Source: Candidatus Omnitrophota bacterium
Lineage (GTDB): Bacteria > Omnitrophota > Gorgyraeia > Gygaellales > Profunditerraquicolaceae
Direction: 5' to 3'
DNA length: 64,000 bases
NCBI GenBank assembly: GCA_043814315.1
Contig: JBDRKE010000010.1
Coordinates: 66,896 to 130,895 of the forward strand
The notes below the pieces were generated by a model. That model was not told the origin of the DNA. It saw only the letters and a program-made list of their open reading frames with translations, and did not search any database. A program made the translations under genes and the position numbers. This document shows positions 12,981 through 59,734 of this stretch, in pieces; position 1 is the first letter of the stretch, and each line of letters starts with the position of its first letter.

Positions 12981-15854
12981 ATGCATAATCATGACGCTAT
13001 TGTTATCCATGGTGCTAAAGAGCACAACCTTAAAAATATAAATCTTATCCTACCGCGCCAGAGACTGATTGTTGTTACAGGGTTATCTGGTTCGGGTAAA
13101 TCAAGCCTCGCCTTTGATACCATCTACGCGGAAGGCCAGCGTCGATTCGTGGAGAGCCTTTCCAGCTACGCGCGTCAGTTTTTAGAACAATTACAGAAGC
13201 CCGATGTCGAATATATCGGCGGATTATCGCCGACCATTGCCATTGAACAGCGTACAGCAGGCGGCAATCCGCGTTCCACGGTAGCCACCCAAACCGAGAT
13301 CTACGATTATTTAAGATTGCTTTTTGCCCGCATCGGAAGGGTTTATTGTTATCGGTGTCAACGGCCGATCAACAGACAAAGTTCCCAAGAGATTGTTGAT
13401 AGAATCATGGCCATGCCGGCCCAGACAGAGATGCAAATACTAGCTCCTGTTATCTCAGGAAGAAAAGGGGAATATAAAGAGATCTTCAGTTGGATTCAAA
13501 AATCAGGGTTCCTGCGTTGTCGCGTTGACGGTAAGATTTACGAATTGCCGTTAGATTTAAAGTTAGCAAAATATAAAATGCATCATATCGAGGTGGTCGT
13601 AGATAGATTAGTCCTAAGCCCGCAAGTAAAGAAAAGACTTACGGATTCCATCGAGACGGCACTTAAAGTAGGCAAAGGCACGGTTATTATTAGCCAGCTA
13701 GCCAGTTACCCAATTACCCTATCGAACCGGCAAACCGGCCAATCGGCCAACCGGCCAACCGGCAAACCGGCAAATCGGCCAACCGACTTAGTCTTCAGCG
13801 AACAGTACGCCTGCACAAAATGCGGGATCAGCTATGCACAAGTCCAGCCGCGCAATTTTTCTTTTAATTCACCCTACGGCGCCTGCCCGGAGTGCCACGG
13901 CCTTGGCACAAAACTAGAGTTTGATCCTGACTTAGTTATTTCGGACAGAAGCAAATCCATCCAGGAAGGAGCGCTTGAGCCCTGGAAGAGGGGAGGCAGG
14001 GGCTACATCCTCTATTATCGCTGGCTCATCCGGGAGCTGTCTTACAAGATGCATTTTGATTTAGACACTCCGTTTAAGAACCTGAGAAAGGAAGTGCAGA
14101 AGGCCGTACTTTTTGGGACGGATGAAGAGGTCAACGGCAAGCCCTTCGAAGGCGTGATTCCCCATCTGGAAAGGTTATTCCGGGAAACGGATAGCGATTA
14201 TTTAAAAGAAGAGATATCCAAATTCATGTCGAGCCTGAGTTGTTCCTTGTGCCAGGGGGCCAGACTTAAAAAGGAAAGCTTGTCTGTGAAGATTCAAGGC
14301 AAGAATATTTGGCAGATCGCCCAGATGTCTATCAAAGAAGCCAGAGGCTTCTTTAAAGGTCTGGATTTAAGCGAAAAAGAAAAAACGATTGCGCATCAGG
14401 CCTTGAAAGAGATTGTCCAGAAATTACAGTTTTGCGTGGATGTGGGGTTGGAGTATTTAACGCTGGACAGAAGAAGCTCGACGCTTTCCGGCGGAGAGGC
14501 GCAGAGGATTCGCCTGGCCACTCAGGTTGGATCCGGCCTTGTCGGAGTGTTGTATGTATTGGATGAGCCCAGTATCGGCCTGCACCAAAGGGACAACAAT
14601 AAATTGCTTTCGACATTGGAGGCGTTACGGGATCTGGGCAACACGTTGATTGTTGTGGAGCACGACGAGAGTACAATTCTTTCCTCTGACTATATCGTGG
14701 ATTTGGGGCCGGGAGCTGGCCGGCACGGCGGGGAAGTCGTATTCTGTGGCACAAAGGAAGAATTATTAAGGCATCCGGAGTCGCTGACGGCGAAATATTT
14801 AAGGCGCGAATTAAAGATCGAGATCCCTAAGAAGAGAAGGCCCTGGCAAGACAGGAAATTCCTTGTGGTTACCGGAGCCAGAGAGCACAATCTTAAAAAC
14901 ATAGAAGTGAAATTTCCTCTGGGTCTTTTTATCTGCGTGACGGGAGTTTCTGGTTCGGGCAAGTCCACTCTGGTCGATGAGATCCTGTTCAGAAGCCTCG
15001 CGCAAAAACACTACAAATCCAAAGATAAACCGGGGCTTCACGATAAGATTACAGGTATAGAGCTTATCGATAAAGTGATTGTCGTGGATCAGTCTCCCAT
15101 AGGCAGGACTCCCCGCTCGAATCCCGCAACCTACACAGGAATGTTTGGCCCTATCAGGGATTTATTCAGCAAGCTTCCCGAAGCCAAGGTGCGCGGATTT
15201 AAACCCGGCAGATTTTCTTTTAACGTAAAAGGGGGCCGTTGCGAGGCGTGCTCCGGGGATGGCATCAAGAAAATCGAGATGCATTTTCTTCCGGATGTGT
15301 ATGTGAAGTGCGATATCTGCAAGGGGAACAGGTTCAACGAATCCACCCTGGAAGTCAAATTCAAAGGCCAATCCATAGCGGATGTCTTAAGGATGACCGT
15401 AGAGGAGGCCTTGGACTTATTTGGCAATGTGCCAAAGATAAAGAACACGCTGGGCTATCTTTATGACGTAGGCTTGGGGTATATGACGCTGGGGCAGGCC
15501 GCCACAACGCTTTCCGGCGGAGAGGCACAGCGCATTAAGTTATCTAGCGAGCTGAGCAAGCGCTCTACGGGAAAGACCCTGTACATTTTGGATGAGCCGA
15601 CAACGGGATTGCATTTTGCCGATGTAGACAAGCTGCTTTGCGTGCTCCAAAGGTTAGTCGACAAAGGCAACACCGTGGTCGTTATCGAACATAACTTAGA
15701 AGTCATTAAATGTGCTGATTATATTATCGATCTTGGGCCTGAGGGGGGAGATAGAGGCGGAGAATTGGTGGTAGCGGGGACTCCCGAAGCGTTGCTTCGC
15801 TGCAAGGCGTCGTTTACGGCCGATGCCCTGAGAAAGGTGTTGAAGAGGCGCTGA
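12981..15854 (+). CDS. uvrA: excinuclease ABC subunit A
   Basis: N-terminus MHNHDAIVIHGAKEHNLKNI, two Walker A motifs (GLSGSGKSS and GVSGSGKST), two LSGGE signatures and zinc-finger Cys pairs. The ATG at 12981 is preferred over the longer ORF from 12894. Confidence 0.95.
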   Translation: MHNHDAIVIHGAKEHNLKNINLILPRQRLIVVTGLSGSGKSSLAFDTIYAEGQRRFVESLSSYARQFLEQLQKPDVEYIGGLSPTIAIEQRTAGGNPRSTVATQTEIYDYLRLLFARIGRVYCYRCQRPINRQSSQEIVDRIMAMPAQTEMQILAPVISGRKGEYKEIFSWIQKSGFLRCRVDGKIYELPLDLKLAKYKMHHIEVVVDRLVLSPQVKKRLTDSIETALKVGKGTVIISQLASYPITLSNRQTGQSANRPTGKPANRPTDLVFSEQYACTKCGISYAQVQPRNFSFNSPYGACPECHGLGTKLEFDPDLVISDRSKSIQEGALEPWKRGGRGYILYYRWLIRELSYKMHFDLDTPFKNLRKEVQKAVLFGTDEEVNGKPFEGVIPHLERLFRETDSDYLKEEISKFMSSLSCSLCQGARLKKESLSVKIQGKNIWQIAQMSIKEARGFFKGLDLSEKEKTIAHQALKEIVQKLQFCVDVGLEYLTLDRRSSTLSGGEAQRIRLATQVGSGLVGVLYVLDEPSIGLHQRDNNKLLSTLEALRDLGNTLIVVEHDESTILSSDYIVDLGPGAGRHGGEVVFCGTKEELLRHPESLTAKYLRRELKIEIPKKRRPWQDRKFLVVTGAREHNLKNIEVKFPLGLFICVTGVSGSGKSTLVDEILFRSLAQKHYKSKDKPGLHDKITGIELIDKVIVVDQSPIGRTPRSNPATYTGMFGPIRDLFSKLPEAKVRGFKPGRFSFNVKGGRCEACSGDGIKKIEMHFLPDVYVKCDICKGNRFNESTLEVKFKGQSIADVLRMTVEEALDLFGNVPKIKNTLGYLYDVGLGYMTLGQAATTLSGGEAQRIKLSSELSKRSTGKTLYILDEPTTGLHFADVDKLLCVLQRLVDKGNTVVVIEHNLEVIKCADYIIDLGPEGGDRGGELVVAGTPEALLRCKASFTADALRKVLKRR
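13725..13786 (+). repeat. degenerate octanucleotide tandem repeat (cMaaYcgg, about 7.5 units) inside uvrA
   Basis: aaccgg caaaccgg ccaatcgg ccaaccgg ccaaccgg caaaccgg caaatcgg ccaaccga, translated as NRQTGQSANRPTGKPANRPT. The same unit occurs non-coding at 51302..51332 and flanks the mtaB insert. Confidence 0.9.
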
Positions 15855-15874: not shown

Positions 15875-18520
15875 ATGGGTAAATCACAAATCCCAATTTC
15901 CAAATCCCAAACAAATCCAAAATTCAATGCTTCGACTGCGCTTGCCATTGACACCGAGGCGGCCCTTCGTTTCGTTTCACTCGCTGTGGGTCGTCCCGAG
16001 CGAAGTCGAGGGACGAAGCCGAGGTGCCAAATCCAAAAAATTCAAATTGGCAGATTACTTGTTGTTTTTTTTGTGCTTGTATTTGCTTCGAACTACGAAC
16101 TTCGAACTCCGTACTTTGCTTATGCCCAGGATCCCAAAGAGGAAGAGGCACTCTTCGTTGCAAAGAAAGCCTTTGATGATGGTTTCTATGATGTCAGTCA
16201 GAACTTATTAGAGCGATTCCTCATTCAATACCCGCGTTCTTCAAAGACAGCGGAAATTCATCTATTGATGGGGCGTTCTTTTTTTTACCAAAATAGATTC
16301 TTGGATGCGCTTTCCAAATTTGAAGAACTTTTGGGCCAGCCCCAGGCTAAAAACCTTAAAGATGCCCTTTTTTACTGGATAGCCGAAGTCCACTTCAAGG
16401 GCAATAGTTTCAATAAGGCGGCCAGTTTTTACAAAAAGATTATTGATGAATTCCCGTCTTCTTCCTATTTAGGCGCTTCCTATTATTCATTGGCGTGGTG
16501 TTACTTCCAGGAAAGAAAATTTGAAGAGGCCCTCGCTTATTTCAAGATCATCGAAGAAAGGTACCTTCAAGAATCCTCTTTTCAAGATGCACCTTTAAAG
16601 ATCATCGAGTGCCTTTACAATTTAAAAGATTATGAGGGACTCAAAAAAAAGGTGAGGTCTTACTTGAATCTTTATCCCAAGAGCGCAGAGCAATCGCCTT
16701 ACCCCTATTTTTATTTGGCTGAAGCTGATTATTACCTCGGTAATTTTCAAGAAGCGATCGAAGAATATTCTTCGATTCTTAAGAGCAGCCTTGATCCCAA
16801 GGCGCAGGCGCTCTCGAAGATGGGTATGGCATGGTCTTATCTTAAATTGAAAAAATACAAAGAGGCAGAAAGCGCATTTTTGGATATCAAAGAAGGACAC
16901 CTTGAGAAAAGAAGCCAGGAGATCTTGCGGCTGGGTGAGGCTATCCTCATGGTTGAGACGAACCGCGTCAACGAAGCCAAAGGCATTTATGAGCAACTGC
17001 TGAGCCGTTCGGACGATCCCCTTGTTTTAATTCAGGCCTATCTGGGGAAAGCAGACGCCCTTTATAACCTTGCAGAATATCATGAGGCGATCAGCGTATA
17101 TAAAGAGGCCTTGAGTAAGTTTAGCCCCGGGACCGTTCCTCAGGAGATCATGGATAAAATACACTATAGCCTTAGCTGGACCTATTTAAAGCAGGGGGAA
17201 TTCAAGGAGGCCATCAAAGAGTTTCAGAGAATCGTCAAAGAAACAGACGATAAAATCGTTAAAGTCAGCGCGCTTTGTCAAATAGGTGATGCGTATCAGG
17301 ATTCCGGAGATTATACCGAAGCCCAGGAAGCCTATTCCGTCATATTAAAGGATTACCCCGATAATTTCTATAGCGATTATGTGCAATACCAGTTAGGCCT
17401 GACGCTGCTTAAAGCCTCTAACTATGAAGGGGCTATTATGAGCTTTCAGGCCCTCAAAAGAAATTTTCCCCAATCCAAACTTTTAGACGACGCCACGTAC
17501 GCGCTTGGGTTAGCCTATTTCCAAAGACAGGATTATAATTCCAGCCGTGTCCTCTTTGAAAGTTTTGAGCAGGAATTCAAGGATAGTCCACTTAAGCCCC
17601 AGGCCCTTTATCTTCTTGGCACCTGTTTCTATAACCTGCGTGAATTTGCCAAGGCGATTGAGGTGTTTAAGAATGTCATCAGATTGTATAGCCAGGATAC
17701 CGATTTGGTCCAGAAGGCAGAATATGAAATAGCCGATTGTTATGACCAGATGGGAGACGAAAAAGAGGCGGTGAACCGATTCAATATCTTGCGTTCCAAA
17801 TATCCTGATTCGAGCCTGACCCCCGAAGTCATGTGGTGGCTGGGAGAATACTATTACAAACATAACGAATTGGAGTTGGCGCGCCGGTACTTTTCGACCC
17901 TCATCAGAGACTTTCCCAAAAGCCCGCTGGTCGCGGATTCCTATTATGCCGTAGGGACAAGTTTTGAAGAGGAATCCAGGCATGAGGAGGCAATAGAGAA
18001 TTTTCGGAAAGTCATGGATTTGGGCAAAACCGACCTTAATGGCCAGGCTGCTATCGCTATCGCAGACATATACGTCAAACAGGAAAACCTGGAATCAGCC
18101 ATCAAGGCTTATCAGGAGATTAGCAGAGAATATCCGAATCTGACCCATTTGATTTATCCCAAGATGGCCCAGCTTTACTACAAAACTGCAGATTTCAGTC
18201 AAGCTTTAAATTTTTATCGCAAGAGCCTTGATGTGGTATCGGTAAGAGAAATGGGGAATATCCATTTTAAAATAGCCGAAGTGTTGCAAGCACAGGGAAC
18301 TCTGGATGAGGCTATAGAGGAATACCTGAAAGTCGCCTACCTTTATCCAGAGAATGACTTGCTCGCCATTAAGGCCCTTTTAAGAGTAGCTCAGATCTAT
18401 GAAGATAAAGAGAATTTTAAAGAGGCCGCGCGTATCTATGAAAAAATAGTTTCAATAGACGCTGAAGAAGCCAAGTATGCACAAGAGAGGATAGACTGGA
18501 TAAAGGTACACGTAAAATAA
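15875..18520 (+). CDS. large TPR-repeat protein (probably exported); N-terminus uncertain
   Basis: About 800 aa of tandem TPR-like repeats (the YbgF/CpoB-style pattern A..Y..A....g.y.eA). The first ~70 codons of the ORF read through an intergenic repeat element. No canonical start lies just before the hydrophobic LLVVFFVLVFAS segment. Confidence 0.7.
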   Translation: MGKSQIPISKSQTNPKFNASTALAIDTEAALRFVSLAVGRPERSRGTKPRCQIQKIQIGRLLVVFFVLVFASNYELRTPYFAYAQDPKEEEALFVAKKAFDDGFYDVSQNLLERFLIQYPRSSKTAEIHLLMGRSFFYQNRFLDALSKFEELLGQPQAKNLKDALFYWIAEVHFKGNSFNKAASFYKKIIDEFPSSSYLGASYYSLAWCYFQERKFEEALAYFKIIEERYLQESSFQDAPLKIIECLYNLKDYEGLKKKVRSYLNLYPKSAEQSPYPYFYLAEADYYLGNFQEAIEEYSSILKSSLDPKAQALSKMGMAWSYLKLKKYKEAESAFLDIKEGHLEKRSQEILRLGEAILMVETNRVNEAKGIYEQLLSRSDDPLVLIQAYLGKADALYNLAEYHEAISVYKEALSKFSPGTVPQEIMDKIHYSLSWTYLKQGEFKEAIKEFQRIVKETDDKIVKVSALCQIGDAYQDSGDYTEAQEAYSVILKDYPDNFYSDYVQYQLGLTLLKASNYEGAIMSFQALKRNFPQSKLLDDATYALGLAYFQRQDYNSSRVLFESFEQEFKDSPLKPQALYLLGTCFYNLREFAKAIEVFKNVIRLYSQDTDLVQKAEYEIADCYDQMGDEKEAVNRFNILRSKYPDSSLTPEVMWWLGEYYYKHNELELARRYFSTLIRDFPKSPLVADSYYAVGTSFEEESRHEEAIENFRKVMDLGKTDLNGQAAIAIADIYVKQENLESAIKAYQEISREYPNLTHLIYPKMAQLYYKTADFSQALNFYRKSLDVVSVREMGNIHFKIAEVLQAQGTLDEAIEEYLKVAYLYPENDLLAIKALLRVAQIYEDKENFKEAARIYEKIVSIDAEEAKYAQERIDWIKVHVK
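15881..16050. repeat. modular repeat element (aaatcccaaa arm, gagcgaagtcgagggacgaag core)
   Basis: A/C-rich arm at 15881..15927, a GC-rich core with cgaag-periodic inverted segments at 15960..16024, and a second short A/C arm at 16027..16050. Confidence 0.75.
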
Positions 18521-18536
18521 CATATAAGACAACATG

Positions 18537-18731
18537 ATAAATCCCAGATCCAAAATAAATCCCTGCCTGTGGCAGACAGGCAAAATCCCAAATCCAAAAC
18601 TATTTGGGATTTTGAAATTGGCACTTCGGGTTCGCCTCAGTGCCAATGGTGAGCGAAGTCCTGAGCTTGTCGAAGGACGAAGTCGAACCGTGGGATTTGT
18701 TTGGTAGTATTGGTATTATTTGGATTTTGTC
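18537..18731. repeat. modular hairpin element (aaatcccaaa / tttgggattt arms with two GC-rich cores)
   Basis: Left arm ataaatcccagatccaaaataaatcc, a gcctgtggcagacaggc hairpin, aaaatcccaaatccaaaac/tatttgggattttg, the core ggtgagcgaagtcctgagcttgtcgaaggacgaagtcgaac, then gggatttgtttggtagtattggtatt. Confidence 0.8.
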
Positions 18732-18753
18732 TGATTAACAGAGGAGGATAAGG

Positions 18754-19386
18754 ATGGATCTTTACAGGATGAATTTTTTTCAGGTTTTTTTAGCAGGCGG
18801 CCCGGTGATGTGGCCGATACTCTTGTGTTCTATTTTTGCGCTGGCCATAGTGCTGGAGAAGATCTGGTACTTGTATAAAATAAAAATAGACACCCAGGAT
18901 TTCTTGAACAAGATTCTGGATAAGATGAAACGCCATGACACTAAAGAGGCTTTACGCATTTGCGACGGCACAAAGAGCCCCATAGCTAATATTTTGAAGG
19001 CGGGAATTCTTAAATACGACCGGCCGCGCCCTCAGATTATAGAGGGGATCGAAGATGCTTCTTTGTATGAGATACCCCGCATAGAAAAGAATCTTACGAC
19101 GCTGGCAACCATTGCGCATGTTTCTCCGCTCTTAGGACTCTTGGGAACGGTTACGGGAATGGTGAGGTCTTTCCAAATCATCCAGGCGAAAGCCAGCAGT
19201 TTTCATCCTGTTTCTCCGGGAGATTTGGCCGGCGGGATTTGGGAGGCGTTATTAACGACAGTAGCCGGTTTGATTGTGGCCATACCTACTTTTGTAGCCT
19301 ATAATTACCTGGTTAGCCGCATCAATCATTTTATTCTGGAGATGGAAAAAGCCTCAACCGAATTGGTAAATTTTCTTACTGAATAA
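18754..19386 (+). CDS. MotA/TolQ/ExbB family proton channel
   Basis: 210 aa with three TM segments. C-terminal region GDLAGGIWEALLTTVAGLIVAIPTFVAYNYL is typical of TolQ/ExbB. Confidence 0.85.
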   Translation: MDLYRMNFFQVFLAGGPVMWPILLCSIFALAIVLEKIWYLYKIKIDTQDFLNKILDKMKRHDTKEALRICDGTKSPIANILKAGILKYDRPRPQIIEGIEDASLYEIPRIEKNLTTLATIAHVSPLLGLLGTVTGMVRSFQIIQAKASSFHPVSPGDLAGGIWEALLTTVAGLIVAIPTFVAYNYLVSRINHFILEMEKASTELVNFLTE

Positions 19387-21598: not shown

Positions 21599-21652
21599 AA
21601 TTATATCATGTAGTATGTATAATTTTATGGTTTATACATTCTCAGCCAGAAT

Positions 21653-21735
21653 CCTTCGGCAGGCTCAGGACACTTCGCCGAAGAATAACCATAGCAAACC
21701 TTAGGCTTTAGACCGAGGTACCCGTAGGTTGATTT
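21653..21735 (+). repeat. two dispersed-repeat modules in the cluster A leader region
   Basis: The hairpin core ccttcggcaggctcaggacacttcgccgaag (21653..21683) recurs at 36989..37020 inside mtaB. The segment ccttaggctttagaccgaggtacccgtaggttgattttt (21699..21735) recurs at 50899..50938 upstream of rplU. Confidence 0.8.
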
Positions 21736-21778
21736 TTCAAATATAAGTAAGTCTAAGTAAATTTATAGCAAAAAATAC

Positions 21779-21878: not shown

Positions 21879-22079
21879 ATGACGAGATTGATCGATATTA
21901 ATGAATTAGCCGACTATTTACGATTAAAGAAACAGACCATTTATAATTGGCTGCATCAGTCAAAGATTTCTGGTATTAAGGTGGGTGGGGTGTGGAGGTT
22001 TGACCGTAAAGATGTGGATAGTTGGTTGAAAAGCAGAAGGCGATTGTCAAAAGACTTAAAATCCGGAGAAAAGCAATGA
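21879..22079 (+). CDS. excisionase/MerR-type helix-turn-helix DNA-binding protein
   Basis: 66 aa. LIDINELADYLRLKKQTIYNWLHQSKISGIKVGGVWRFDRKDVDSWL is the HTH_17 pattern. Its stop overlaps the next start (ATGA). Confidence 0.7.
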   Translation: MTRLIDINELADYLRLKKQTIYNWLHQSKISGIKVGGVWRFDRKDVDSWLKSRRRLSKDLKSGEKQ

Positions 22080-23644
22080 GTTCGTTAGGAATATATTTTG
22101 GCCCTAAGTTGATAAAGATTGTGGAATGCCAAGGCCACAATCTCAAAAATGTCACCCAGATTCATCAGTCGACAATCTCTGCGGGAGAATTGGAAGAAAA
22201 AGTCCCCGCTGAAGTTAAAACCATTGAATTCGTCGCTCTTTTTAAAGATGAGCTGCGAAGAAACAAAATTGAAGCCAAACAGGCCACGCTCTCTCTTTCC
22301 GGAAGGGATTTGATTATTCGGACCTTTGAGATACCCATGATTCCGCGCGAAGAAATAGAAAGCGCCGTAAATTTTGAAGCCAAAAAATACATCCCCTTTA
22401 AAGTCGAAGAACTGGTAACGGATTTTCAGCTAAAATTTGACAAGTCCAGCCGTACAAATCTGGTTCTTTTTATGGGGTTAAAAAAAGAGACTTTAGATAA
22501 ATATGTTTCTATTCTTAATCAGTTGAACATCAAGATTCATGCCATCGAATATTCGGCTTTTAGCATGATAAGATGTTTGAAGCTTAGCGGCTTAAGCGAT
22601 AGAGGAACTATAGGGATTTTGGGTGCTGACCTGACAGGGGAGGATGAGGTTAATTTTACGGTTTTGGAAGATGGTTTTCCGCTGTTTAGCCGGGATATTT
22701 CTTTGGCAGGAGGACCTGAAAGCTTAGGCAGGCTAAAAGAGACAGGGCCGTTGGAAGCTTTAGAAAAGCTTAAGACGGAGATCCATGTTTCTTTAGATTA
22801 CTACAACCGTAAATACCCCACCAAAAATATCAAGAAAATATTTCTTATTTCCGACCCTGATAATCGCCTGGAATTGGAAGCGTTTATTAAGGAAACGGGT
22901 TTATTGGTTCAATTTGTTAATACGTCTAAATACTCGAAGGAATCCCCGGCTTACTCTTTAAGTTTTTTAAAAGCCTACAGCAGTTCTTTATCTAAAACGA
23001 TAAGGCTGTTGCTGAAGGTCAATCTATTAGCAGCAAAAGAAAAGTTAAAATTAGCAAAAGAAAAAGCTGTTTTCAAGGAGAGGCTTTCCCTATTTGAGAA
23101 CTTAAGGCTGGATTATAGAGTCCTTTTTCTGGGCCTCTTGTTATGCGTGGGCGCTTACGGTTACGGCGTTTATCAAATGCAACCTTTACGTAAGGACCTT
23201 GTTGATATCCATTCCAGAAGATTGGCGGTTTCCAGCGTAAATGCAGGCGGCACTCAAGAAGAATTAACCGATGCCGCTGTCCAGGCTAAAAGGAGGCTTG
23301 GGTCCTTGGAAAACCTTATTAAGGGGCAAGTGTATCTTACGGAAATATTTAATATCCTGCCCCAGGATCTCCCCAGGGGCCTATGGTTCACTAATTTTTC
23401 TCTTGGCAAGAAAGAGGAAACGGGAACCGAGCTTATCCTGGGAGGCAGGGTGGATCTGGGGGATAGCGATGAAGAATTCAAGACCGTAAACGATTTTCTT
23501 TCGAACCTGGAAAGACGCACGGAATTCGTCAAATACTTTAAACAGGTCAGCCTCATCTCCTTAGAGAATGTACAATTAGCGAATGAGCTCTATCCGTATA
23601 CCCAGTTTGTCATTTCTTGTAAAAGTTATTCGACTGAGGAATAG
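22076..23644 (+). CDS. PilM-PilN fusion protein (type IV pilus assembly)
   Basis: The N-terminal ~330 aa are PilM-like (RTFEIPMIPREEIESAVNFEAKKYIPF). These are followed by VNLL, a TM segment (VLFLGLLLCVGAYGYGVY) and a PilN-like periplasmic domain. Confidence 0.75.
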   Translation: MSSLGIYFGPKLIKIVECQGHNLKNVTQIHQSTISAGELEEKVPAEVKTIEFVALFKDELRRNKIEAKQATLSLSGRDLIIRTFEIPMIPREEIESAVNFEAKKYIPFKVEELVTDFQLKFDKSSRTNLVLFMGLKKETLDKYVSILNQLNIKIHAIEYSAFSMIRCLKLSGLSDRGTIGILGADLTGEDEVNFTVLEDGFPLFSRDISLAGGPESLGRLKETGPLEALEKLKTEIHVSLDYYNRKYPTKNIKKIFLISDPDNRLELEAFIKETGLLVQFVNTSKYSKESPAYSLSFLKAYSSSLSKTIRLLLKVNLLAAKEKLKLAKEKAVFKERLSLFENLRLDYRVLFLGLLLCVGAYGYGVYQMQPLRKDLVDIHSRRLAVSSVNAGGTQEELTDAAVQAKRRLGSLENLIKGQVYLTEIFNILPQDLPRGLWFTNFSLGKKEETGTELILGGRVDLGDSDEEFKTVNDFLSNLERRTEFVKYFKQVSLISLENVQLANELYPYTQFVISCKSYSTEE

Positions 23645-29401: not shown

Positions 29402-29557
29402 CTCGGGATAATTTGCTGACCCGTAAGAGCGGGCAAATTAATTCGTTAACCCGTTATAGCTGGCGAATAATTTACTGAGCGGTTATAGCGGGGAAATTAA
29501 TCCGCTGACTAGTTATAGCAGACGGATAATTTGCTGACCCGTAATAGCGGGCAAATT
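29402..29557 (+). repeat. tandem array of five ~30-nt hairpin units directly upstream of a pilin SD
   Basis: Each unit has the form aatt-X5-...gtta/tagc...-X5'-aatt, and the outer stems differ between units (ttgc/gcaa, ttcg/cgaa, tccg/cgga). The first and last units (29406.. and 29524..) are identical except for one base. The array ends 1 nt before the aggagg SD. Confidence 0.85.
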
Positions 29558-29568
29558 AGGAGGAAAAG

Positions 29569-29964
29569 ATGAAAAGAGGTTTTACGTTACTAGAACTGAT
29601 CATTGTCATCATCGTCGTCGGTATATTAGCTACCCTTGGTTTTGTCCAGTATACAAGCATGATTGAAAAAGGCCGAAAAGCAGAGGCCAGAAGCATTTTG
29701 GGGACGTTACGTCAGTTAGAGGTTGTGCGGTATCAGGAAACAGGAGCTTATAGTAATTTGGCTGGCTTAAGTACGGGTGTACCTGACGGCGCATGTGCAG
29801 CCACACATTATTTTTTCTACGCCTGCGCCGCTGGAACAGGCACCTGCACAGCTACTAGATGTATAGGTGTTGTAGGTAAACAGCCAGGCGTTCCTGCCGC
29901 AGATGTCTATACCATTACGTTGAGTGTTGACGGAAATTTCAACGGAACAGGCAATTGGCAGTAA
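29569..29964 (+). CDS. type IV pilin-like protein (paralog 1)
   Basis: MKRG|FTLLELIIVIIVVGILA prepilin motif. The C-terminal domain has four Cys. Confidence 0.85.
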   Translation: MKRGFTLLELIIVIIVVGILATLGFVQYTSMIEKGRKAEARSILGTLRQLEVVRYQETGAYSNLAGLSTGVPDGACAATHYFFYACAAGTGTCTATRCIGVVGKQPGVPAADVYTITLSVDGNFNGTGNWQ

Positions 29965-29988
29965 GGATATAAAAAAGACAGCATTATC

Positions 29989-30399
29989 TTGGAGAGAAAG
30001 AAGAAGAAAAAAGGCTTTACAATGTTAGAGCTAGTTATAGTCATTGTGGTCGTGGCTATACTAGTGAGTTTAGGGCTTGTTCAGTTTACTTCCGTGATGG
30101 AAAAGGGCCGTAAAGCAGAAGCCAGAAGCATCCTGGGGACGCTGCGTCAGTTAGAGATTTCGCGATACGAAGAGATGCTCACGTATAGTAATTTAGCAGG
30201 ATTAGGCATAGCTGTACCTGACGGCGCATGTGCAGCCACGCATTATTTTTTCTACGCCTGCGCCGCTGGAACAGGCACCTGCACGGCTACTAGATGTATA
30301 GGTGCTGTAGGTAAACAGCCAGGCGTTCCTGCCGCAGATGTTTATACCATCACGCTGGATGTTAACGGAAATTTCTCGGGAACAGGCAATTGGCAGTAA
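29989..30399 (+). CDS. type IV pilin-like protein (paralog 2)
   Basis: TTG start with leader MERKKKKKG|FTMLELVIVIVVVAILV. The last ~186 nt are nearly identical to paralog 1. Confidence 0.85.
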   Translation: MERKKKKKGFTMLELVIVIVVVAILVSLGLVQFTSVMEKGRKAEARSILGTLRQLEISRYEEMLTYSNLAGLGIAVPDGACAATHYFFYACAAGTGTCTATRCIGAVGKQPGVPAADVYTITLDVNGNFSGTGNWQ

Positions 30400-32187: not shown

Positions 32188-32420
32188 AAATTTTCCAGCC
32201 TCTCGCCCTTTGGGCTCGGGATAATTCGTCGACCGATAAGGTATAACGGGCGAATTAACAAGGAAAATTTTGGTGGCACTTGAACGAGCGCGGGCGAGGC
32301 AGCCCCTCGGCCGTTGGCCTCGGGATAATTCACCGATATGCAATAGCGGGTGAATTAACAAGCGAGGCAGCGAGTGAAAGTGCATACTTCCTTGATTTTT
32401 GATAAGGAAAAATTTGGTGG
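32188..32420 (+). repeat. two ~105-nt repeat units downstream of tRNA-Ala, each with a ctcgggataatt...aattaacaag hairpin
   Basis: The hairpins at 32213..32262 (aattcg/cgaatt stem) and 32318..32366 (aattcacc/ggtgaatt stem) share the ctcgggataatt lead-in seen at 29402. In addition, ggaaaa(a)tttggtgg at 32262 and 32406 is an inverted copy of the tRNA 3' end caccaaaattttcc. Confidence 0.8.
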
Positions 32421-33547: not shown

Positions 33548-33686
33548 CAAATCCCAAATCCAAAATCCCAAATCCCAAACAAATCCCAAACACCAATTTC
33601 CAATATTTCAAACTTTAATGTTTCGGTCATTGGTCATTGGGGCATTGGTGCTTATTTGGAATTTGGTGCTTGGTACTTGGAATTTA
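33548..33686. repeat. modular hairpin element (aaatcccaaa.. / ..ttggaatttggtg arms)
   Basis: A/C-rich arm at 33548..33614 and complementary G/T-rich arm at 33626..33686. The right arm lies within the reading frame of the downstream gene. Confidence 0.8.
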
Positions 33687-35090: not shown

Positions 35091-35098
35091 AATACTTA

Positions 35099-35243
35099 TA
35101 AATTCAAATGTCAAAATCCAAAAAGAATCCCTGCCTTGCCGGCAGGCAGGCAAGGCAGGGAGGCAAATGTTAAAACAGAAGATTCATCGTTTTGAATTTT
35201 GTGCTTTGTGCTTATTTTGAATTTTGAGCTTTGTCATTTGAAT
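35099..35243. repeat. modular hairpin element (aattcaaatgtcaaaatccaaaa arm, ccctgccttgcc-ggcaggca-ggcaaggcaggg core)
   Basis: A 12-bp palindromic stem core lies at 35129..35160. The right arm ttttgaattttgtgctttgtgcttattttgaattttgagctttgtcatttgaat complements the left arm. Confidence 0.8.
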
Positions 35244-36645: not shown

Positions 36646-37968
36646 ATGCAAACCGTTAAATTTTATACTTTAGGCTGCAAGGTGAATCAGTATGATACGC
36701 AGAACTTGAGGGAGCGTTTTGAGGAGGCAGGATTTAAGGAATTAGAGGACACAGAGGCTGCGGATGTCTGTGTCGTGAATACCTGCACGGTCACGCACAA
36801 GGCGGATGCAGATTCCTTAAACATCATCCGCAAAACCAGAAGGCAGAACCCGAAGGCAAGGATTATCGTCACGGGGTGCCTTACCGAATTAGACGAAAAG
36901 AAGATCAAAGATGCCGGCGCGCGCCTGATTATCAAAAATAAAGATAAAACAAGGATAACGGAGATTTTAAACCGGCAAATGGGCAAATCCTTCGGCAGGC
37001 TCAGGACGCTTCGCCGAAGGGCGCTGAGCGAAAGAGAAGTGCCGGCAAACCGGCAAATGTACAAAGGCATTTCTTTTTTTAAGGGCCACACGCGCGCCTT
37101 CATAAAAATTCAGGATGGTTGCGATAACTTTTGCTCCTATTGCAAGGTTCCCCTGGTTAGAGGTGCTTCGCGGAGCAGGCCGCTTAAGGATGTTGTTGAA
37201 GAGGCTAACAGATTAAGTCAAAACGGTTTCAGAGAGATAGTCCTCACTGGCATATGTTTAGGCTCATACGGTAGGGATTTAAAGCAGAGGGTTTCTCTTG
37301 TCAATGTAATCGATAAGTTGGAAGACATCGACGAACAGTTACGCATCAGACTGAGCTCTATTGAGGCAGGCGATATTTCAGATGGATTAATACATAAGCT
37401 TGCGCATTCTAGAAAATTATGCCGACATCTGCACGTGCCTTTTCAGAGCGGCGATAACGAAATATTAAAAAAAATGAACCGCAGAGATACTTTTGAAGAT
37501 TATTTGAGACTTATCCGCAGGATAAAAGCCGCCATACCAGAAATCGCCATAACTACAGATATCATAGTTGGATTTCCATCAGAAACTGAAGAGAATTTTC
37601 AGAATACCCTTAGCCTGATTAAGCAGACTATGCCTTTAAGAGTGCATATCTTTACATACAGTTTAAGAGAGCCCACCGCCGCAAGTAATTTTAAGGAAAA
37701 TTGTAATCCGGTTATCGTAAAAAAAAGAGTCTCTAAACTTAAAGAAATCTCCCAGAATTGCAGCCTCATTTTTAAAAAGCGATTTCTCAACAGAAAAATG
37801 GAAGTCCTTATAGAAGGCCGGGCAAAAGAAAATAAGGATTACTGGCAGGGTTATACTGGGAATTATATGAAGGTGGAGGTTAAATCCGAACTCGATTTAA
37901 AGAATAAAATGGTTCCCTTACAATTGAAAAAAATATTTAACAGCCATATTCTGGCAGATTTTTATTGA
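36646..37968 (+). CDS. mtaB: MiaB-like tRNA methylthiotransferase (MtaB type)
   Basis: N-terminal MTTase domain (FYTLGCKVNQYD, VVNTCTVT), the radical SAM motif CDNFCSYCKVP and a C-terminal TRAM-like region. It carries a 78-nt repeat insertion in the interdomain linker. Confidence 0.8.
   Translation: MQTVKFYTLGCKVNQYDTQNLRERFEEAGFKELEDTEAADVCVVNTCTVTHKADADSLNIIRKTRRQNPKARIIVTGCLTELDEKKIKDAGARLIIKNKDKTRITEILNRQMGKSFGRLRTLRRRALSEREVPANRQMYKGISFFKGHTRAFIKIQDGCDNFCSYCKVPLVRGASRSRPLKDVVEEANRLSQNGFREIVLTGICLGSYGRDLKQRVSLVNVIDKLEDIDEQLRIRLSSIEAGDISDGLIHKLAHSRKLCRHLHVPFQSGDNEILKKMNRRDTFEDYLRLIRRIKAAIPEIAITTDIIVGFPSETEENFQNTLSLIKQTMPLRVHIFTYSLREPTAASNFKENCNPVIVKKRVSKLKEISQNCSLIFKKRFLNRKMEVLIEGRAKENKDYWQGYTGNYMKVEVKSELDLKNKMVPLQLKKIFNSHILADFY
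36971..37059 (+). repeat. in-frame repeat insertion in mtaB flanked by an 11-bp direct repeat
   Basis: accggcaaatg occurs at 36971..36981 and 37049..37059, exactly 78 nt (26 codons) apart. Between them lies the hairpin core ccttcggcaggctcaggacgcttcgccgaagg (36989..37020), also found intergenically at 21653..21683. Confidence 0.85.
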
Positions 37969-50725: not shown

Positions 50726-50898
50726 CCTCCCGGTTATTTTCCTTGATTCCCTCAAGAATTGTGCTAATATATAAATTTAAAGCATTTTCAGCAGGTACGC
50801 GCAGATACTTTTAAAAGAGTTCTTTATACATTCGCGGGCAGAAACCTTGTCCTTCAGGGCAAGGATGAAAAATGGCCGCTTGAGTACCAACCATGACA

Positions 50899-50938
50899 GG
50901 CCTCGGCTTAAAGGCCGAGGTAATCGTAGGTTGATTTT
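50899..50938 (+). repeat. hairpin-containing leader motif shared with 21699..21735
   Basis: ggcctcggcttaaaggccgaggtaatcgtaggttgatttt here, compared with ccttaggctttagaccgaggtacccgtaggttgattttt at 21699..21735. It ends just before the rplU SD (aggagg). Confidence 0.7.
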
Positions 50939-50951
50939 AGGAGGAAAGCAA

Positions 50952-51266
50952 ATGTATGCAGTGATTGAAGTTGGAGCAAAACAGTTTAGCGTAAAAAAGG
51001 ATGATATTATTGAGGTGGAAAAGCAGACCGCCGAAGAAGGTCAAGAGATAAGCCTGGATAAGGTGTTGTTTTTATCCAAGGATAAGAAAATTGAGGTGGG
51101 CCGGCCTTATCTTATCAATGTGTCGCTACGAGCCCTGGTTTTAAAGCATGGAAAAGGTGCAAAGGTCATTAGTTTTAAATATCGCCGAAGAAAGTCTAAG
51201 CATTGGACAAAGGGGCACAGGCAGCAATTGACCCGCCTTAAAATAAAAGATATTATTATAAGTTAG
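50952..51266 (+). CDS. rplU: 50S ribosomal protein L21
   Basis: MYAVIEVGAKQFSVKKDDII start and HRQQLTRLKI C-terminus. 104 aa, with an SD upstream of ATG 50952. Confidence 0.92.
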   Translation: MYAVIEVGAKQFSVKKDDIIEVEKQTAEEGQEISLDKVLFLSKDKKIEVGRPYLINVSLRALVLKHGKGAKVISFKYRRRKSKHWTKGHRQQLTRLKIKDIIIS

Positions 51267-51335
51267 CCTGTTTTCCTGTTAGTCGGTTAGCCTGTGGAAT
51301 TGGCAAACCGGCGAACCGGCCAACCGGCAAACAGC
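51267..51335. repeat. hairpin-type spacer with ccggcaaa-family octamer units
   Basis: cctgttttcctgttagtcggttagcctgt is followed by ggcaaaccggcgaaccggccaaccggcaaac (51302..51332). It fills the whole rplU-obg spacer. Confidence 0.75.
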
Positions 51336-53337: not shown

Positions 53338-54594
53338 ATGAGCATGAAACAGGAAATCACAGATATAGCCAAGAAGGCGAAGGTCGCATCAAGATATCTG
53401 GCGCAGGTTTCTTCGGGGAAAAAAGACGTTGTTCTTAAAGAGATGGCCGCAGGGCTCCTCAGGCATAAAGATCTCGTGTTGAAAGCCAATAAAAAGGATA
53501 TCATTAAGGCACAGCGTTCTGGCAGGTCAGCAGCTTTTTTGGAGAGGCTCACCCTGAACGAAAAAAGAATTAAAGAGATGGCTGAGTCCTTGATTCAGAT
53601 ATCCAGGTTAAAGGACCCTGTGAACAGCTTGATTAAGGCGTGGGTGAGGCCTAACGGCCTTCGCATACATAAAGTGCGTGTTCCTATAGGAGTCGTGGCT
53701 ATTATCTACGAATCGCGGCCTAACGTAACCAGCGACTGTATCGGACTTTTGTTTAAGTCAGGCAACAGCGTTATCTTAAAGGGGGGTAGTGACGCCTTAA
53801 CTTCAAATCTTGCCATATTTAAGATACTCAGGGCTGTGGCGGTAAAACACCAAATTCCCGACGGGGCCGTTTCTTTGTTGACGGCCATAGACAGGAGATC
53901 GCTAGATTTATTGCTGAAGCAGGATGATTTCGTTGATTTGGTTATGCCCCGGGGAGGAGAAGGATTGATCAGGCGTGTCCTGAATGGTTCGCGTATACCC
54001 GTACTCAAGCATTATAAAGGGATATGCCATGTTTATGTTGATGAAGGAGCGGATTTGAATATGGCGCAAGATATCTGTTTTAACGCCAAGGTCCAAAGGC
54101 CAGGTGTCTGCAATGCCATGGAAAGCATGTTAGTGCATGAAAGGGTAGCCGGGAGGTTTTTACCGGGGATGTTAAGAAAATTCAAGCAGGCAGGCGTAGA
54201 AATCCGCGGAGATGCCTTGACGCAAAGGCTCGCAAAAGACATAAAAAGGGCTAAAGAGAAAGACTATCGCACAGAATACCTTGATCTGATTCTTTCTGTA
54301 AAGGTGGTTAAAGATTTAGAGGAGGCCATCTCCCGTATCAATCATTATGGCTCGCATCATTCCGATGCGATTGTTACGGATCATGAGGCCAGTGCTAAGC
54401 AATTTTTAAGCCGGGTGGATTCTGCCTGCGTTTACGTCAATGCCTCGACGCGTTTTACGGACGGTTATCAATTCGGCCTGGGTGCCGAAATCGGCATATC
54501 TACGGATAAACTGCATGCGCGCGGCCCCGTGGGGCTGGAAGAGTTGACGACGTATAAGTACGTTGTATATGGGAAGGGACAGATAAGGACATAA
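53338..54594 (+). CDS. proA: glutamate-5-semialdehyde dehydrogenase
   Basis: 418 aa. Contains IYESRPNVT, the catalytic-Cys context GVCNAMESMLVH, and NASTRFTDG. Confidence 0.93.
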   Translation: MSMKQEITDIAKKAKVASRYLAQVSSGKKDVVLKEMAAGLLRHKDLVLKANKKDIIKAQRSGRSAAFLERLTLNEKRIKEMAESLIQISRLKDPVNSLIKAWVRPNGLRIHKVRVPIGVVAIIYESRPNVTSDCIGLLFKSGNSVILKGGSDALTSNLAIFKILRAVAVKHQIPDGAVSLLTAIDRRSLDLLLKQDDFVDLVMPRGGEGLIRRVLNGSRIPVLKHYKGICHVYVDEGADLNMAQDICFNAKVQRPGVCNAMESMLVHERVAGRFLPGMLRKFKQAGVEIRGDALTQRLAKDIKRAKEKDYRTEYLDLILSVKVVKDLEEAISRINHYGSHHSDAIVTDHEASAKQFLSRVDSACVYVNASTRFTDGYQFGLGAEIGISTDKLHARGPVGLEELTTYKYVVYGKGQIRT

Positions 54595-54596
54595 AT

Positions 54597-54708
54597 GGTT
54601 AAATCCCTATTTAAAAATCCCAAACAAAACATTTGGATTTGGGATTTGTTTGGTAGTATTGGGATTTTGGATTTGTTTGGGATTTGGGATTTGGAAATTG
54701 GGATTTTC
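54597..54708. repeat. modular hairpin element (aaatccc.. / tttgggattt.. arms)
   Basis: Short A/C arm at 54601..54630 and a longer G/T arm at 54631..54708 that contains gggatttgtttggtagtattgggatt (54641..54666). Confidence 0.8.
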
Positions 54709-58022: not shown

Positions 58023-59564
58023 ATGAATGAAACAAAATCAGAACTGGAAGAGCTGTATAATCAGAGTATCAGGCTTATCAAAGAAGGGCAGGTGATAACG
58101 GGCAAGATCGTTACGATAAAGACCAAAGAGGTACTGGTGGATGTAGGATTTAAATCAGAGGGGATCGTCCCGATTGCGGAATTCAGTTCACAGGATCTGG
58201 AAGCCGGCAAGGAACTTGAGTTTTTTGTCGAATCCATAGAGAATGATGCGGGTAACATCGAGCTGTCGCGCGAAAAAGCCATACGCATCCAGGGATGGGA
58301 CAGGATCGTCAAGTTTTCTCAGACCGGCGAGTTGGTGGAAGGCAGGCCTATTAAAAAGGTCAAAGGGGGATTTCTAGTTGATGTGATGGGTATCGAGGGG
58401 TTTCTCCCTTCCTCGCTTTCGGCTTTCAAGGGTGTGGCCGAAAGAGAAATCATGTACAAGCCTTTTAAGTTCAAGATCGTCAAGATAAACAACTTAAGAA
58501 GAAGCATCATTGTCAGCCGCAGGGAGGCGGTGCAGAAAGCAAAAGAGGAGGTCAAGGATAAGATTTGGCAGGACTTGAAGATCGGTAATATTTATCCCGG
58601 CACGGTCAAGGCCATAACGGATTTTGGTGCCTTTGTGGACTTGGGAGGAGTGGATGGCCTCTTGCATATCACGGATATGTCCTGGTCTAAGATCAGCCAT
58701 CCTTCGGAAATTGTGGCCTTGGGAGACAAGATCGAAGTCATGGTGTTGAATTTTGACAAGGAATCGGGAAAGATATCGCTCGGCTTAAAGCAGAGGCTCC
58801 CTGACCCCTGGCAGGATATAGAGAAGAAATTTATCGTCGGTTCCAAAATCAAAGGCAAGGTCGTCAATATCCTTCCTTAAGGAGTATTTGTGGAACTAGA
58901 GAAGGGTATCGAGGGGCTCATCCATGTTTCTGAAATCTCTTGGACAAAAAGGATCAATAATCCGAATGAGATGTTTGCTATCGCAGATATGGTGGAAACT
59001 CAGATCCTTAACGTAGATAAGGATTCCCGCAGGATATCCTTGAGCCTGAAACAGCTCGAGCAGAATCCGTGGCTGGAAGCCGAATCTAAATACCCTGCCG
59101 GAACCAAAATCACGGGAAAAGTGAGAGGATTCACAGATTACGGAGCCTTTGTTGAGTTGGATAGTAACCTGGAAGGGATGATCCATGTATCGGATATCTC
59201 CTGGACAAAAAGGATAGCGCATCCTCAGGATGTTCTTAAGAAAGGTCAGAAGATTGAGGCCATAGTACTCTCTGTGGACAGCCAGAATCGCCGTATCGTG
59301 TTAGGCTTAAAGCAGCTGCAGTCAAACCCCTGGCCCGAGATCGCTGCCAAATATCCTTTAGATACCGTCTTGGAAGCAGAGACTGTCAGTATCACAGAGT
59401 TCGGCGTATTTGTTAAGATAGAAGAGGAACTCGAAGGTTTGGTGTATGCCAGCGAGATAGACAGGGAGACCGTTTCACAATTGAAACCCGGGGATAAGTT
59501 TAAGGTAAAAATAATCAAGGTGGATGTGGAGCAGAACAAGATTGGACTGTCGGCAAAGATATAA
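58023..59564 (+). pseudogene. rpsA: 30S ribosomal protein S1, contiguous frame interrupted by one in-frame TAA (58878..58880)
   Basis: ORFs 58023..58880 and 58890..59564 are in the same frame. Across the junction the translation reads [29 protein letters not shown], where the other S1 repeats of this protein have F/Y-G-A/V-F-V. The label pseudogene is provisional; a sequencing error or a split gene is equally possible. Confidence 0.85.
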
Positions 59565-59567
59565 TGT

Positions 59568-59734
59568 TAAATCCAAAATCCAAATATTACCAAATCCAAA
59601 ATAAATCCCAATCTCTCCCGCATAAGCGGGATCCCGCTAGACGTTACAAGTTGCGCGGGAAAAATCCCAAATAGTTTTGGATTTTGGATTTGGGATTTGT
59701 TTGGTAGTATCGGTATTAGTGGGATTTGGGGTTT
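59568..59734. repeat. modular hairpin element (aaatccaaaa / ttttggattt arms, gcgggatcccgc core)
   Basis: Left arm aaatccaaaatccaaatattaccaaatccaaaataaatccc. The core is cccgcataagcgggatcccgc...gcgcgggaaaaa, with the palindrome at 59626..59637. The right arm is agttttggattttggatttgggatttgtttggtagtatcggtatt. Confidence 0.85.

Follow-up and report, generated by a model that had tools for sequence, protein, structure and literature searches.

How did mtaB, a housekeeping tRNA-modification gene of a Candidatus Omnitrophota bacterium, come to hold 26 extra codons bracketed by a direct repeat and still keep its reading frame? The gene lies in a stretch of 64,000 nt (contig JBDRKE010000010.1, positions 66,896 to 130,895), which we refer to as the window. 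An earlier note, made from the sequence alone, had described the insert as a hairpin element bounded by a target-site duplication (TSD). We find that it is a real in-frame insertion resembling Rickettsia palindromic elements (RPEs) and intragenic repetitive extragenic palindromic (REP) sequences, in a new phylum and with a distinctive architecture. A 54-nt quasi-palindrome, here called E, is embedded in an array of short tandem units.

A lineage-specific insert in the interdomain linker of MtaB

The product of the mtaB open reading frame (ORF) is 100% identical to NCBI protein MFH1457905.1, named MtaB, from a Candidatus Omnitrophica metagenome-assembled genome (MAG). Pfam places UPF0004, the N-terminal methylthiotransferase (MTTase) domain, at residues 4–90 and Radical_SAM at residues 153–325, so that the insert, residues 113–138, falls in the linker between them, where the earlier note had put it. 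When aligned with 43 Omnitrophota homologues (55–70% identity), the protein retains all family-invariant residues, the invariant Cys included, and the 26 inserted residues are absent from all 43. The segment between the two domains is hypervariable, differing in both length and sequence among these homologues. An AlphaFold2 model built on the alignment had a mean pLDDT (predicted local distance difference test) score of 89.8 and dropped below 50 only at residues 115–138, with a short helix of low confidence at residues 121–127. The alignment and the model, two of the checks that the earlier note had suggested, support an insert that is lineage-specific, in frame, and inside a disordered interdomain linker.

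Several orthologues shed light on what this linker looked like beforehand. The closest relative (P0002, at the syntenic locus L121) reads KDKEKILATGQRDKGISYF where MtaB of the window reads KDKTRITEILNRQM, the 26 residues, and YKGISFF. Its linker is short, with KDKEKILATGQRDKGIS at the position of the insert and a single AACGGGCCAG, similar to the octamer units described below, at the orthologous spot. Two other orthologues have unit-like sequence at the same place, namely NAACGGGC-type 9-mers in P0023 and AAACGGGCAAACGAAT in P0075. A native seed therefore probably existed, and part of the 3' copy of the direct repeat may be native. In P0039 the same linker holds an unrelated (CYTRCGAA)×8 array, which points to the linker as a recurrent landing or expansion site. 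No + strand site for an internal terminator or promoter made by the insert was found.

The insert contains a 54-nt quasi-palindrome

The 11-mer accggcaaatg does occur twice, 26 codons apart, as the earlier note had reported, and the exact repeat extends to a 13-mer, AAACCGGCAAATG (Table 1). The window around the insert reads ...TTTAAACCGGCAAATG GGCAAATCCTTCGGCAGGCTCAGGACGCTTCGCCGAAGGGCGCTGAGCGAAAGAGAAGTGCCGGC AAACCGGCAAATG TACAAAGGC..., with 78 nt from one copy of the 13-mer to the next, and the protein reads ...LNRQM GKSFGRLRTLRRRALSEREVPANRQM YKGIS.... A search for AAACCGGCAAATG allowing at most one mismatch gave 3 matches where 0.27 were expected, a number that none of 100 shuffled sequences reached.

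Table 1. Positions of the features discussed, numbered from the first nucleotide of the window. The last two rows give the units flanking E in two metagenome contigs.
Feature	Position	Strand	Details
mtaB ORF, host gene	36646..37968	+	440 aa, intact; ORF listing
Left copy of 13-nt direct repeat AAACCGGCAAATG	36969..36981	+	11-mer of the earlier note at 36971-81
Right copy of 13-nt direct repeat AAACCGGCAAATG	37047..37059	+	11-mer of the earlier note at 37049-59
Element E, 54-nt (18-codon) quasi-palindrome TCCTTCGGCAGGCTCAGGACGCTTCGCCGAAGGGCGCTGAGCGAAAGAGAAGTG	36988..37041	+	frame +1 translation SFGRLRTLRRRALSEREV
Hairpin CCTTCGGC-16 nt-GCCGAAGG, 5' half of E	36989..37020	+	minimum-energy fold in this decayed copy only
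Degenerate 3' half of E GCGCTGAGCGAAAGAGAAGTG, inverted sibling of the 5' unit	37021..37041	+	aligned to consensus ACACTGAGCGAAGTCGAAGTG
Two octamer units CCGGCAAA + TGGGCAAA, directly 5' of E	36972..36987	+	repeat families, Tandem Repeats Finder (TRF), 8-mer census
Two octamer units CCGGCAAA + CCGGCAAA, directly 3' of E	37042..37057	+	TRF, period 8, 100% matches
Intergenic copy of E, truncated (first 33 nt)	21652..21684	+	profile E-value 1.6e-9, model 1-33
Diverged full-length relative of E, contains TTCGACAAGCTCAGGAC	18621..18677	-	profile E-value 1.4e-5, model 1-55
TTAGCCAG-type and CCGGCMAA-type octamer arrays without E, in frame in uvrA	13682..13790	+	
Both uvrA array types again, rplU-obg intergenic region	51255..51332	+	
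Repeats in lysA and dapF (two heptamer arrays and a palindrome)	4195-4228, 4565-4596, 4768-4788		
AAATCCCA/TTTGGGAT composites	18520-18754, 54594-54707, 59562-59727, 33548-33674, 15881-15922, 35093-35243		between co-directional genes
Units in contig L124 (serS)			5' CGGGCAAA CGGGCAAA; 3' CGGGCAAA CGGGCAAC
Units in contig L125			5' AAACTTA CAACTTA; 3' CAACTTA CAACTTA

The hairpin drawn in the earlier note is real, both in the sequence and in RNA folding, which lengthens it to a 13-pair stem that contains one bulge and is capped by a UCAGGAC loop. It is not, however, the element. What the earlier note took as a 31-nt hairpin core belongs to the 54-nt E, a head-to-head pair of two ~23-nt units, whose boundaries are set by three independent insertions between whole array units. 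A profile built from metagenome copies of E matched three places in the window, of which the mtaB copy scored best (nhmmer, positions 36988–37042, model 1–55, E-value 5.9e-17); the other two are at 21652–84 and 18621–77. All full copies start TCCTTCG and end CGAAGTG, and stop codons are missing from four of the six frames of E.

The consensus of E folds as a single interrupted hairpin of 7 + 6 + 4 pairs (z = -3.2 as DNA, -3.5 as RNA), with CTTCGAC...GTCGAAG and GCTCAG...CTGAGC as paired segments. This pairing has decayed in mtaB, where E agrees with the metagenome consensus at 48/55 positions. The outer helix is broken by GTC>AGA in the 3' half, and it is for this reason that we regard the mtaB copy as decayed and that the 13-pair hairpin becomes its best fold.

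Copies of E in other genes and between genes

The intergenic copy that had been reported as nearly identical was recovered with 1 mismatch over the 31 nt of the earlier note, or 2 over the 32 nt of the hairpin (21653–21684), where 0.00 chance matches are expected. It is truncated. The two copies are identical at 31 of 33 positions and share this 33-nt core only; they lie 15 kb apart on the same strand. On one side of the truncated copy is a promoter-like TTTATACATTC, on the other a leader-like motif, and a PilM/PilN-like ORF lies downstream. The diverged relative of E is part of an intergenic composite and has TTTGGGAT-type tandem arrays on its flanks.

Scanning metagenomes with the genome-specific 3' arm of E yielded four contigs (L123, L124, L125 and L126), all with TCCTTCGACAGGCTCAGGACACTTCGCCGAAGGACACTGAGCGAAGTCGAAGTG(C). 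The 54–55-nt element is identical among the first three and near-identical in L126. In L124 it lies within the seryl-tRNA synthetase gene serS, read in frame +3 (ILRQAQDTSPKDTERSRS) as an insert of ~20 aa against the structure 2dq3. L123 has it on the opposite strand, where frame -3 (TSTSLSVLRRSVLSLSK) contributes to a PyrK-like protein directly after GPLGNGF, again as an insert of roughly 20 aa relative to solved structures. The peptides that E contributes to the three genes (SFGRLRT..., LRQAQDT... and TSTSLSVLRR...) come from three frames or orientations and are unrelated. The copies in L125, L126 and at 21652 of the window are 5'-untranslated or intergenic. L126 carries a full E in a context resembling the 21.6-kb locus of the window, and a comparison of the two loci for synteny matched the element region alone. 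A leader motif similar to that of the window follows E in L126.

An exhaustive HMMER search with a 30-aa segment found one protein, P0124 (5115 aa), which contains four copies of [NK]RP[IT]GQ-SFD[RK]LRTL.RR.LSESEV-P[AV]NR... at 75% identity over query positions 1–28. The copies can also be written NRPxGQ-SFDRLRTLRRRTLSESEV-PxNRPTN, that is, with NRPTGQ...PANRPTN flanks all four times. Since the matches span query positions 1–28, they include the octamer-coded flanks, which recur together with E. A word-indexed protein search with four E-encoded peptides concatenated gave only 2 candidates, neither of which scored.

P0124 comes from a representative library and is a giant predicted protein in which several enzymes are seemingly joined by stop-free repeat composites (ASPLA ×16, SQFAS ×5, and E with its flanks ×4). 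Either the giant protein is genuine and linked by repeats, or stop-free repeats between genes have fused a string of ORFs into one.

E lies between whole units of short tandem arrays

The sequence on both sides of E in mtaB is made of octamers with the consensus YSGGCAAA. The layout is CCGGCAAA TGGGCAAA / E / CCGGCAAA CCGGCAAA, in which 78 = 54 + 3 × 8, and TGTACAAA at 37058–65 may be a third, decayed unit. A single octamer register running across the insert was considered and rejected, the repeat copies being 78 = 9 × 8 + 6 nt apart; the register is restored once the 54 nt of E are removed. E is set exactly between whole units at three loci, with octamers in mtaB and L124 and heptamers in L125. 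An array context of E or its unit was also seen at L008 and L104.

The window has seven CCGGCAAA 8-mers on the + strand, all of them at three loci, to which the CCGGCAAA/TGGGCAAA units of this strand are confined: an array in uvrA (13727, 13759 and 13767), mtaB (36972, 37042 and 37050), and an array between rplU and obg (51324). The uvrA arrays, in which TTAGCCAG-type units precede CCGGCMAA-type units, amount to an in-frame insert of ~26 aa (SQLASYPITLSNRQTGQSANRPTGKPANRPTD) relative to solved UvrA structures. Their arms pair perfectly (G:U included) only on the minus-strand transcript, and both array types recur as peptides in P0124.

These arrays bear directly on the proposed TSD, a part of the earlier note that found no support in the form given there. 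The repeats flanking E are 13 nt long in the window, 15 nt in L124 and 14 nt in L125, each consisting of two tandem 7–8-nt units, and are absent at L123, at L126 and at 21652 of the window. At L104, in a member of Bacteroidota, filled and empty array copies stand side by side and differ by a 23-nt core, with no duplication. Near-identical octamer flanks of E also recur at unrelated sites (serS of L124 and P0124), which is not what target duplication gives. The direct repeat beside E is most likely a set of array units and not a classical, transposase-made TSD.

We also considered a conserved target beside E in the style of IS200/IS605 and rejected it, the left flanks ending AAA, AAA, TTA, TAG, TCC and GAA with no consensus. 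A mobile element bracketed by copies of the motif was rejected as well, since L174 turned out to be an unremarkable phage region for head morphogenesis and the genes at L037 are ordinary metabolic ones, with no transposase at either. Across the E loci, L174 and L037 we saw no trace of a mobiliser in the form of a conserved target base, a terminal GTAG or CGTC tag, or a neighbouring transposase.

Proposed history of the insert and alternative explanations

With a probability of about 0.7, we read the mtaB insert as E, a small non-autonomous palindromic repeat, lying in a short YSGGCAAA octamer array in the hypervariable MTTase–radical-SAM linker, where a unit seed expanded, E was placed between units, and the product was passively tolerated. 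A unit-like seed (AACSGGCMA) would already have been present in this linker of Omnitrophota MtaB. It would then have grown by three units (24 nt), after which E (54 nt) would have been placed between whole units, perhaps copied there by a trans-acting or repair-based process; alternatively, an array-E-array composite may have been copied in through homology with the seed. Since 24 + 54 = 78 nt, both steps preserve the reading frame. The mtaB copy, read in one of its four stop-free frames, would have been tolerated as a disordered surface loop and has presumably decayed since. Its decay (the 48/55 match and the broken outer helix) argues for passive tolerance rather than a function for MtaB.

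Some observations weigh against this account. We found no genome closer than ~66–70% protein identity, so that a true empty site is lacking and the junctions stay uncertain at the level of single bases. The 3' copy of the repeat (NRQM-YKGIS) aligns with xQTxKGIS of several orthologues, and this, together with the unit-like sequence in the closest relative, suggests that part of the repeat may be the native target, as a TSD model expects. Flanking repeats of 14–15 nt at L124 and L125 speak in the same direction. The occurrence of the same peptide four times in one frame in P0124 leaves some protein-level selection open. From the intact frame we infer that the insert is translated. What can be said of copy number, of the ratio of coding to intergenic copies, and of a transposase in this host refers to the 64-kb window.

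The strongest competitor, which we nevertheless consider unlikely, is classical transposition in the manner of a miniature inverted-repeat transposable element (MITE), whereby a ~65-nt element entered a native AAACCGGCAAATG and a transposase duplicated the 13-bp target. The exactness of the 13-nt repeat favours it, as do the single unit-like AACGGGCCAG of the closest relative at the orthologous place, the conserved Q...KGIS spacing, which suggests a native 3' copy, and the lengths of the flanking repeats at L124 (15 nt) and L125 (14 nt). Over all motif matches, flanking repeats of at least 9 nt were also about twice as common as in controls (22 vs 10). However, the repeated octamer forms E-free arrays in uvrA and between rplU and obg, and nearly the same flanks accompany E in another organism's serS and four times in P0124, which random targets would not produce. 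The flanking repeats are two tandem 7- or 8-nt units whose length differs by locus, the copies at L123, L126 and 21652 have none, and the 23-nt core entered L104 without duplication. No transposase or parent insertion sequence (IS) was seen in the window or the examined loci, although no systematic search was made.

An improbable alternative is selection on the protein: the insert would be a module, flexible or charged (SFxRLRTLRRR...), that serves as a linker peptide and is swapped between genes for its usefulness and not as selfish DNA. P0124, which in its 5115 aa repeats the peptide and its flanks four times, always in one frame and with globular parts in between, is what such a module might look like, and the short low-confidence AlphaFold helix at residues 121–127 would also suit it. 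Yet non-coding 5' regions contain this DNA as well (21652, 18621–77, L125 and L126), three genes use it in three frames or orientations to encode unrelated peptides, what is conserved is the nucleotide sequence, in a way that fits a hairpin, and the insert is absent from the 43 MtaB homologues.

Still harder to defend is a one-off templated patch by ectopic repair or gene conversion from the intergenic 21652 copy into mtaB, with no mobile family behind it. The 31/33 identity of these copies, 15 kb apart on the same strand, invites the idea, but with 54 nt the mtaB copy exceeds the 33 nt of its proposed source at 21652 and so cannot derive from it, and four other contigs as well as P0124 contain E at full length. 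Repeat-induced mis-joining in this MAG, conceivable for short multi-copy repeats, is barely credible: past the insert the reading frame picks up again at the orthologous residue, the sequences on either side are colinear with homologues, and independent assemblies have the same element in frame in other genes.

Comparison with known repeat systems

RPEs, reportedly described by Ogata et al. in 2000, are palindromic repeats found in frame in housekeeping genes, where they add an extra loop at a tolerant surface site; they also occur between genes, and RPE-1 is ~100–150 nt long. E resembles them in being palindromic, in lying in frame in housekeeping ORFs, in its consensus hairpin, and in having intergenic copies too. 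The likeness in outcome that the earlier note had drawn is apt, and its soundness follows from the in-frame siblings in serS and the pyrK-like gene. E differs from RPEs in length (54 nt against roughly 100–150 nt for RPE-1), in host (Omnitrophota, not Rickettsiales), in being embedded in 7–8-nt tandem arrays, and in having a 5' unit that is common to many phyla and viruses.

REP superfamilies tagged GTAG or CGTC are 20–40-nt hairpin units, often in head-to-head pairs and mostly extragenic near the ends of ORFs (Di Nocera et al. 2013, PMC3733652). A minority lie within ORFs of several phyla, coding for 20–30 aa, notably in uvrA and in other repair or RNA-related genes (PMC3733652). E likewise consists of two ~23-nt units head to head that form one interrupted hairpin. 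It differs in having no terminal GTAG or CGTC tag and in its association with tandem arrays, which is not described for REPs. No REP-associated tyrosine transposase (RAYT) was seen in the 64-kb window.

Small dispersed repeats (SDRs) are, as Elhai et al. are said to have reported in 2008, sharply bounded modules of 21–27 nt that insert precisely without target duplication, typically in heptamer repeats or hairpins. The ~23-nt unit is similarly bounded, occurs in many unrelated contexts, entered L104 without duplication, and is seen in an array context at several loci. Passages in PMC4390886, PMC5861425 and PMC3116915 mention SDRs of Nostocaceae, and the passage in PMC5861425 describes them as reported only from that family. 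In contrast, the ~23-nt unit has been found here in at least 15 phyla as well as in contigs of viruses, and as the hosts here are not cyanobacteria the analogy is one of function only.

MITEs such as Correia/NEMIS and ERIC are short, non-autonomous and multi-copy, and are co-transcribed or occasionally found in ORFs; classical MITEs have a TSD of fixed length and a recognisable parent IS. E is also short and multi-copy, with terminal inverted repeats in its consensus (decayed in mtaB), but its flanks are most likely array units of 7 or 8 nt and no parent element is known. The short tandemly repeated repetitive (STRR) sequences of cyanobacteria are tandem heptamer arrays scattered between genes and often paired as hairpin arms. 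The arrays of the window share all these traits with 7–8-nt units, and differ in phylum, in the units themselves, and in occurring also in frame in lysA, dapF, uvrA and mtaB.

The best-known cases of palindromic repeats settling in frame in housekeeping genes come from Rickettsia and from a few REP-rich proteobacteria. Omnitrophota can now be added: mtaB, uvrA and dapF are affected within one 64-kb window, and relatives show the same in serS and a pyrK-like gene. Interdomain linkers can lengthen in quantised steps, by 8-nt units in threes or by an 18-codon palindrome. Stop-free repeats can also extend or fuse ORFs, and translations such as SFDRLRT, LRQAQD and VLSLSK contaminate protein databases.

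A ~23-nt unit shared across phyla and viruses

The more novel lead is the 5' unit of E. The 18-mer CTTCGGCAGGCTCAGGAC was found in at least 119 stretches of a one-genome-per-species set of GTDB, where by our own estimate ~17 are expected by chance. Its hosts belong to at least 15 phyla, among them Chloroflexota, Patescibacteria, Nitrospirota, Acidobacteriota, Planctomycetota, Verrucomicrobiota, Bacteroidota and Proteobacteria. According to base counts over 112 matches, the conserved stretch around the searched 18-mer reaches from -2 to +21 and no further: Y at -2 in 97%, C at -1 in 94%, and AGGC at +18 to +21, where it stops. The block shared across phyla is YCCTTCGGCAGGCTCAGGACAGGC, which ends in neither GTAG nor CGTC. 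A unit length of ~23 nt is indicated by this ~24-nt block, by the 23-nt insertion at L104, and by a Dehalococcoidia chromosome (OZ240213.1; L025, 2401–2764) in which the 18-mer occurs 16 times at 23-nt spacing in a perfect tandem run of CCCTTCGGCAGGCTCAGGACAGG.

A degenerate 19-mer matched at least 120 IMG/VR viral contigs. Among the viral sequences, the base that precedes CCTTCG and the R of CAGGRC covary (T-A 30, C-G 71, C-A 27, other 7). As far as sequence can tell, this is compatible with a stem of 4 pairs around a conserved loop of 11 nt, or with the existence of two subfamilies. Neither the unit nor E is covered by an Rfam family: at the gathering threshold on the window and 17 related loci, and in permissive scans of both hairpin loci, only a tRNA was found. 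A literature search with the motif as peptide or DNA words turned up nothing relevant in the searched library.

It is possible, though we hold it doubtful, that the unit (Y)CCTTCGRCARGCTCAGGRC(AGGC) is an ultra-small mobile or copy-pasted module of most bacterial phyla and their viruses, one that inserts without target duplication, prefers 7–8-nt arrays, and pairs head to head into elements such as E that colonise coding sequences. If so, a very widely shared mechanism of mobilisation or templated repair would have to exist, or a universal host factor that binds the 11-nt loop, and the same process might leave the 7–8-nt arrays behind as a by-product. A mobile ~23-nt unit would also widen the cyanobacterial phenomenon of very small mobile elements to bacteria at large and make it testable.

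At four loci from various phyla (L110, L083, L052 and L097) the unit is joined to sibling units (TTCGACAAGCTCAGGGCGAACGG and GGTGAGCCTGTCGAACCAT) in both orientations, and the concatenated units make long GC-rich imperfect palindromes. One variant, GCTCAGGACGAACG, may resemble the 5' end of 16S rRNA in the part that follows the 27F primer site.

Other repeats in the window

Repeats of other kinds are also found in frame. In lysA, TACGCAA is repeated five times with a net gain of 3 aa. In dapF, CTATCCG is repeated 4.6 times and takes the place of an equally long segment of solved homologues, leaving the length unchanged, and the perfect palindrome CCTGCCTGCCCGGCAGGCAGG forms an in-frame hairpin with a gain of 7 aa; a second copy of this palindrome is intergenic, at 35130–35150.

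The intergenic regions of the window are rich in 7–8-nt arrays paired as hairpin arms. In the composites listed in Table 1, AAATCCCA-type and TTTGGGAT-type arrays face each other and make up the two long arms of a hairpin, whose middle often holds GC-rich hairpins. Two paralogous leader-like regions, 21630–21736 and 50813–50938, share TTTATACATTC and a 5' hairpin followed by AACCAT..CCGAGGTA..CGTAGGTTGATTTT. They are 74% identical over 50 nt and lie upstream of the PilM/PilN-like ORF (22022..23644) and of rplU, respectively. They have no Rfam match and may represent a shared cis-regulatory RNA.

A tandem repeat of 29/59 nt, GGATAATTTGCTGACCCGTAAGAGCGGGCAAATTA-like and present in 5 copies, occupies 29406–29558, with one more copy at 32323. 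Downstream of it, at 29566–30300, are two tandem paralogous ORFs of ~130 aa, which form a 300-nt repeat with 78% identity.

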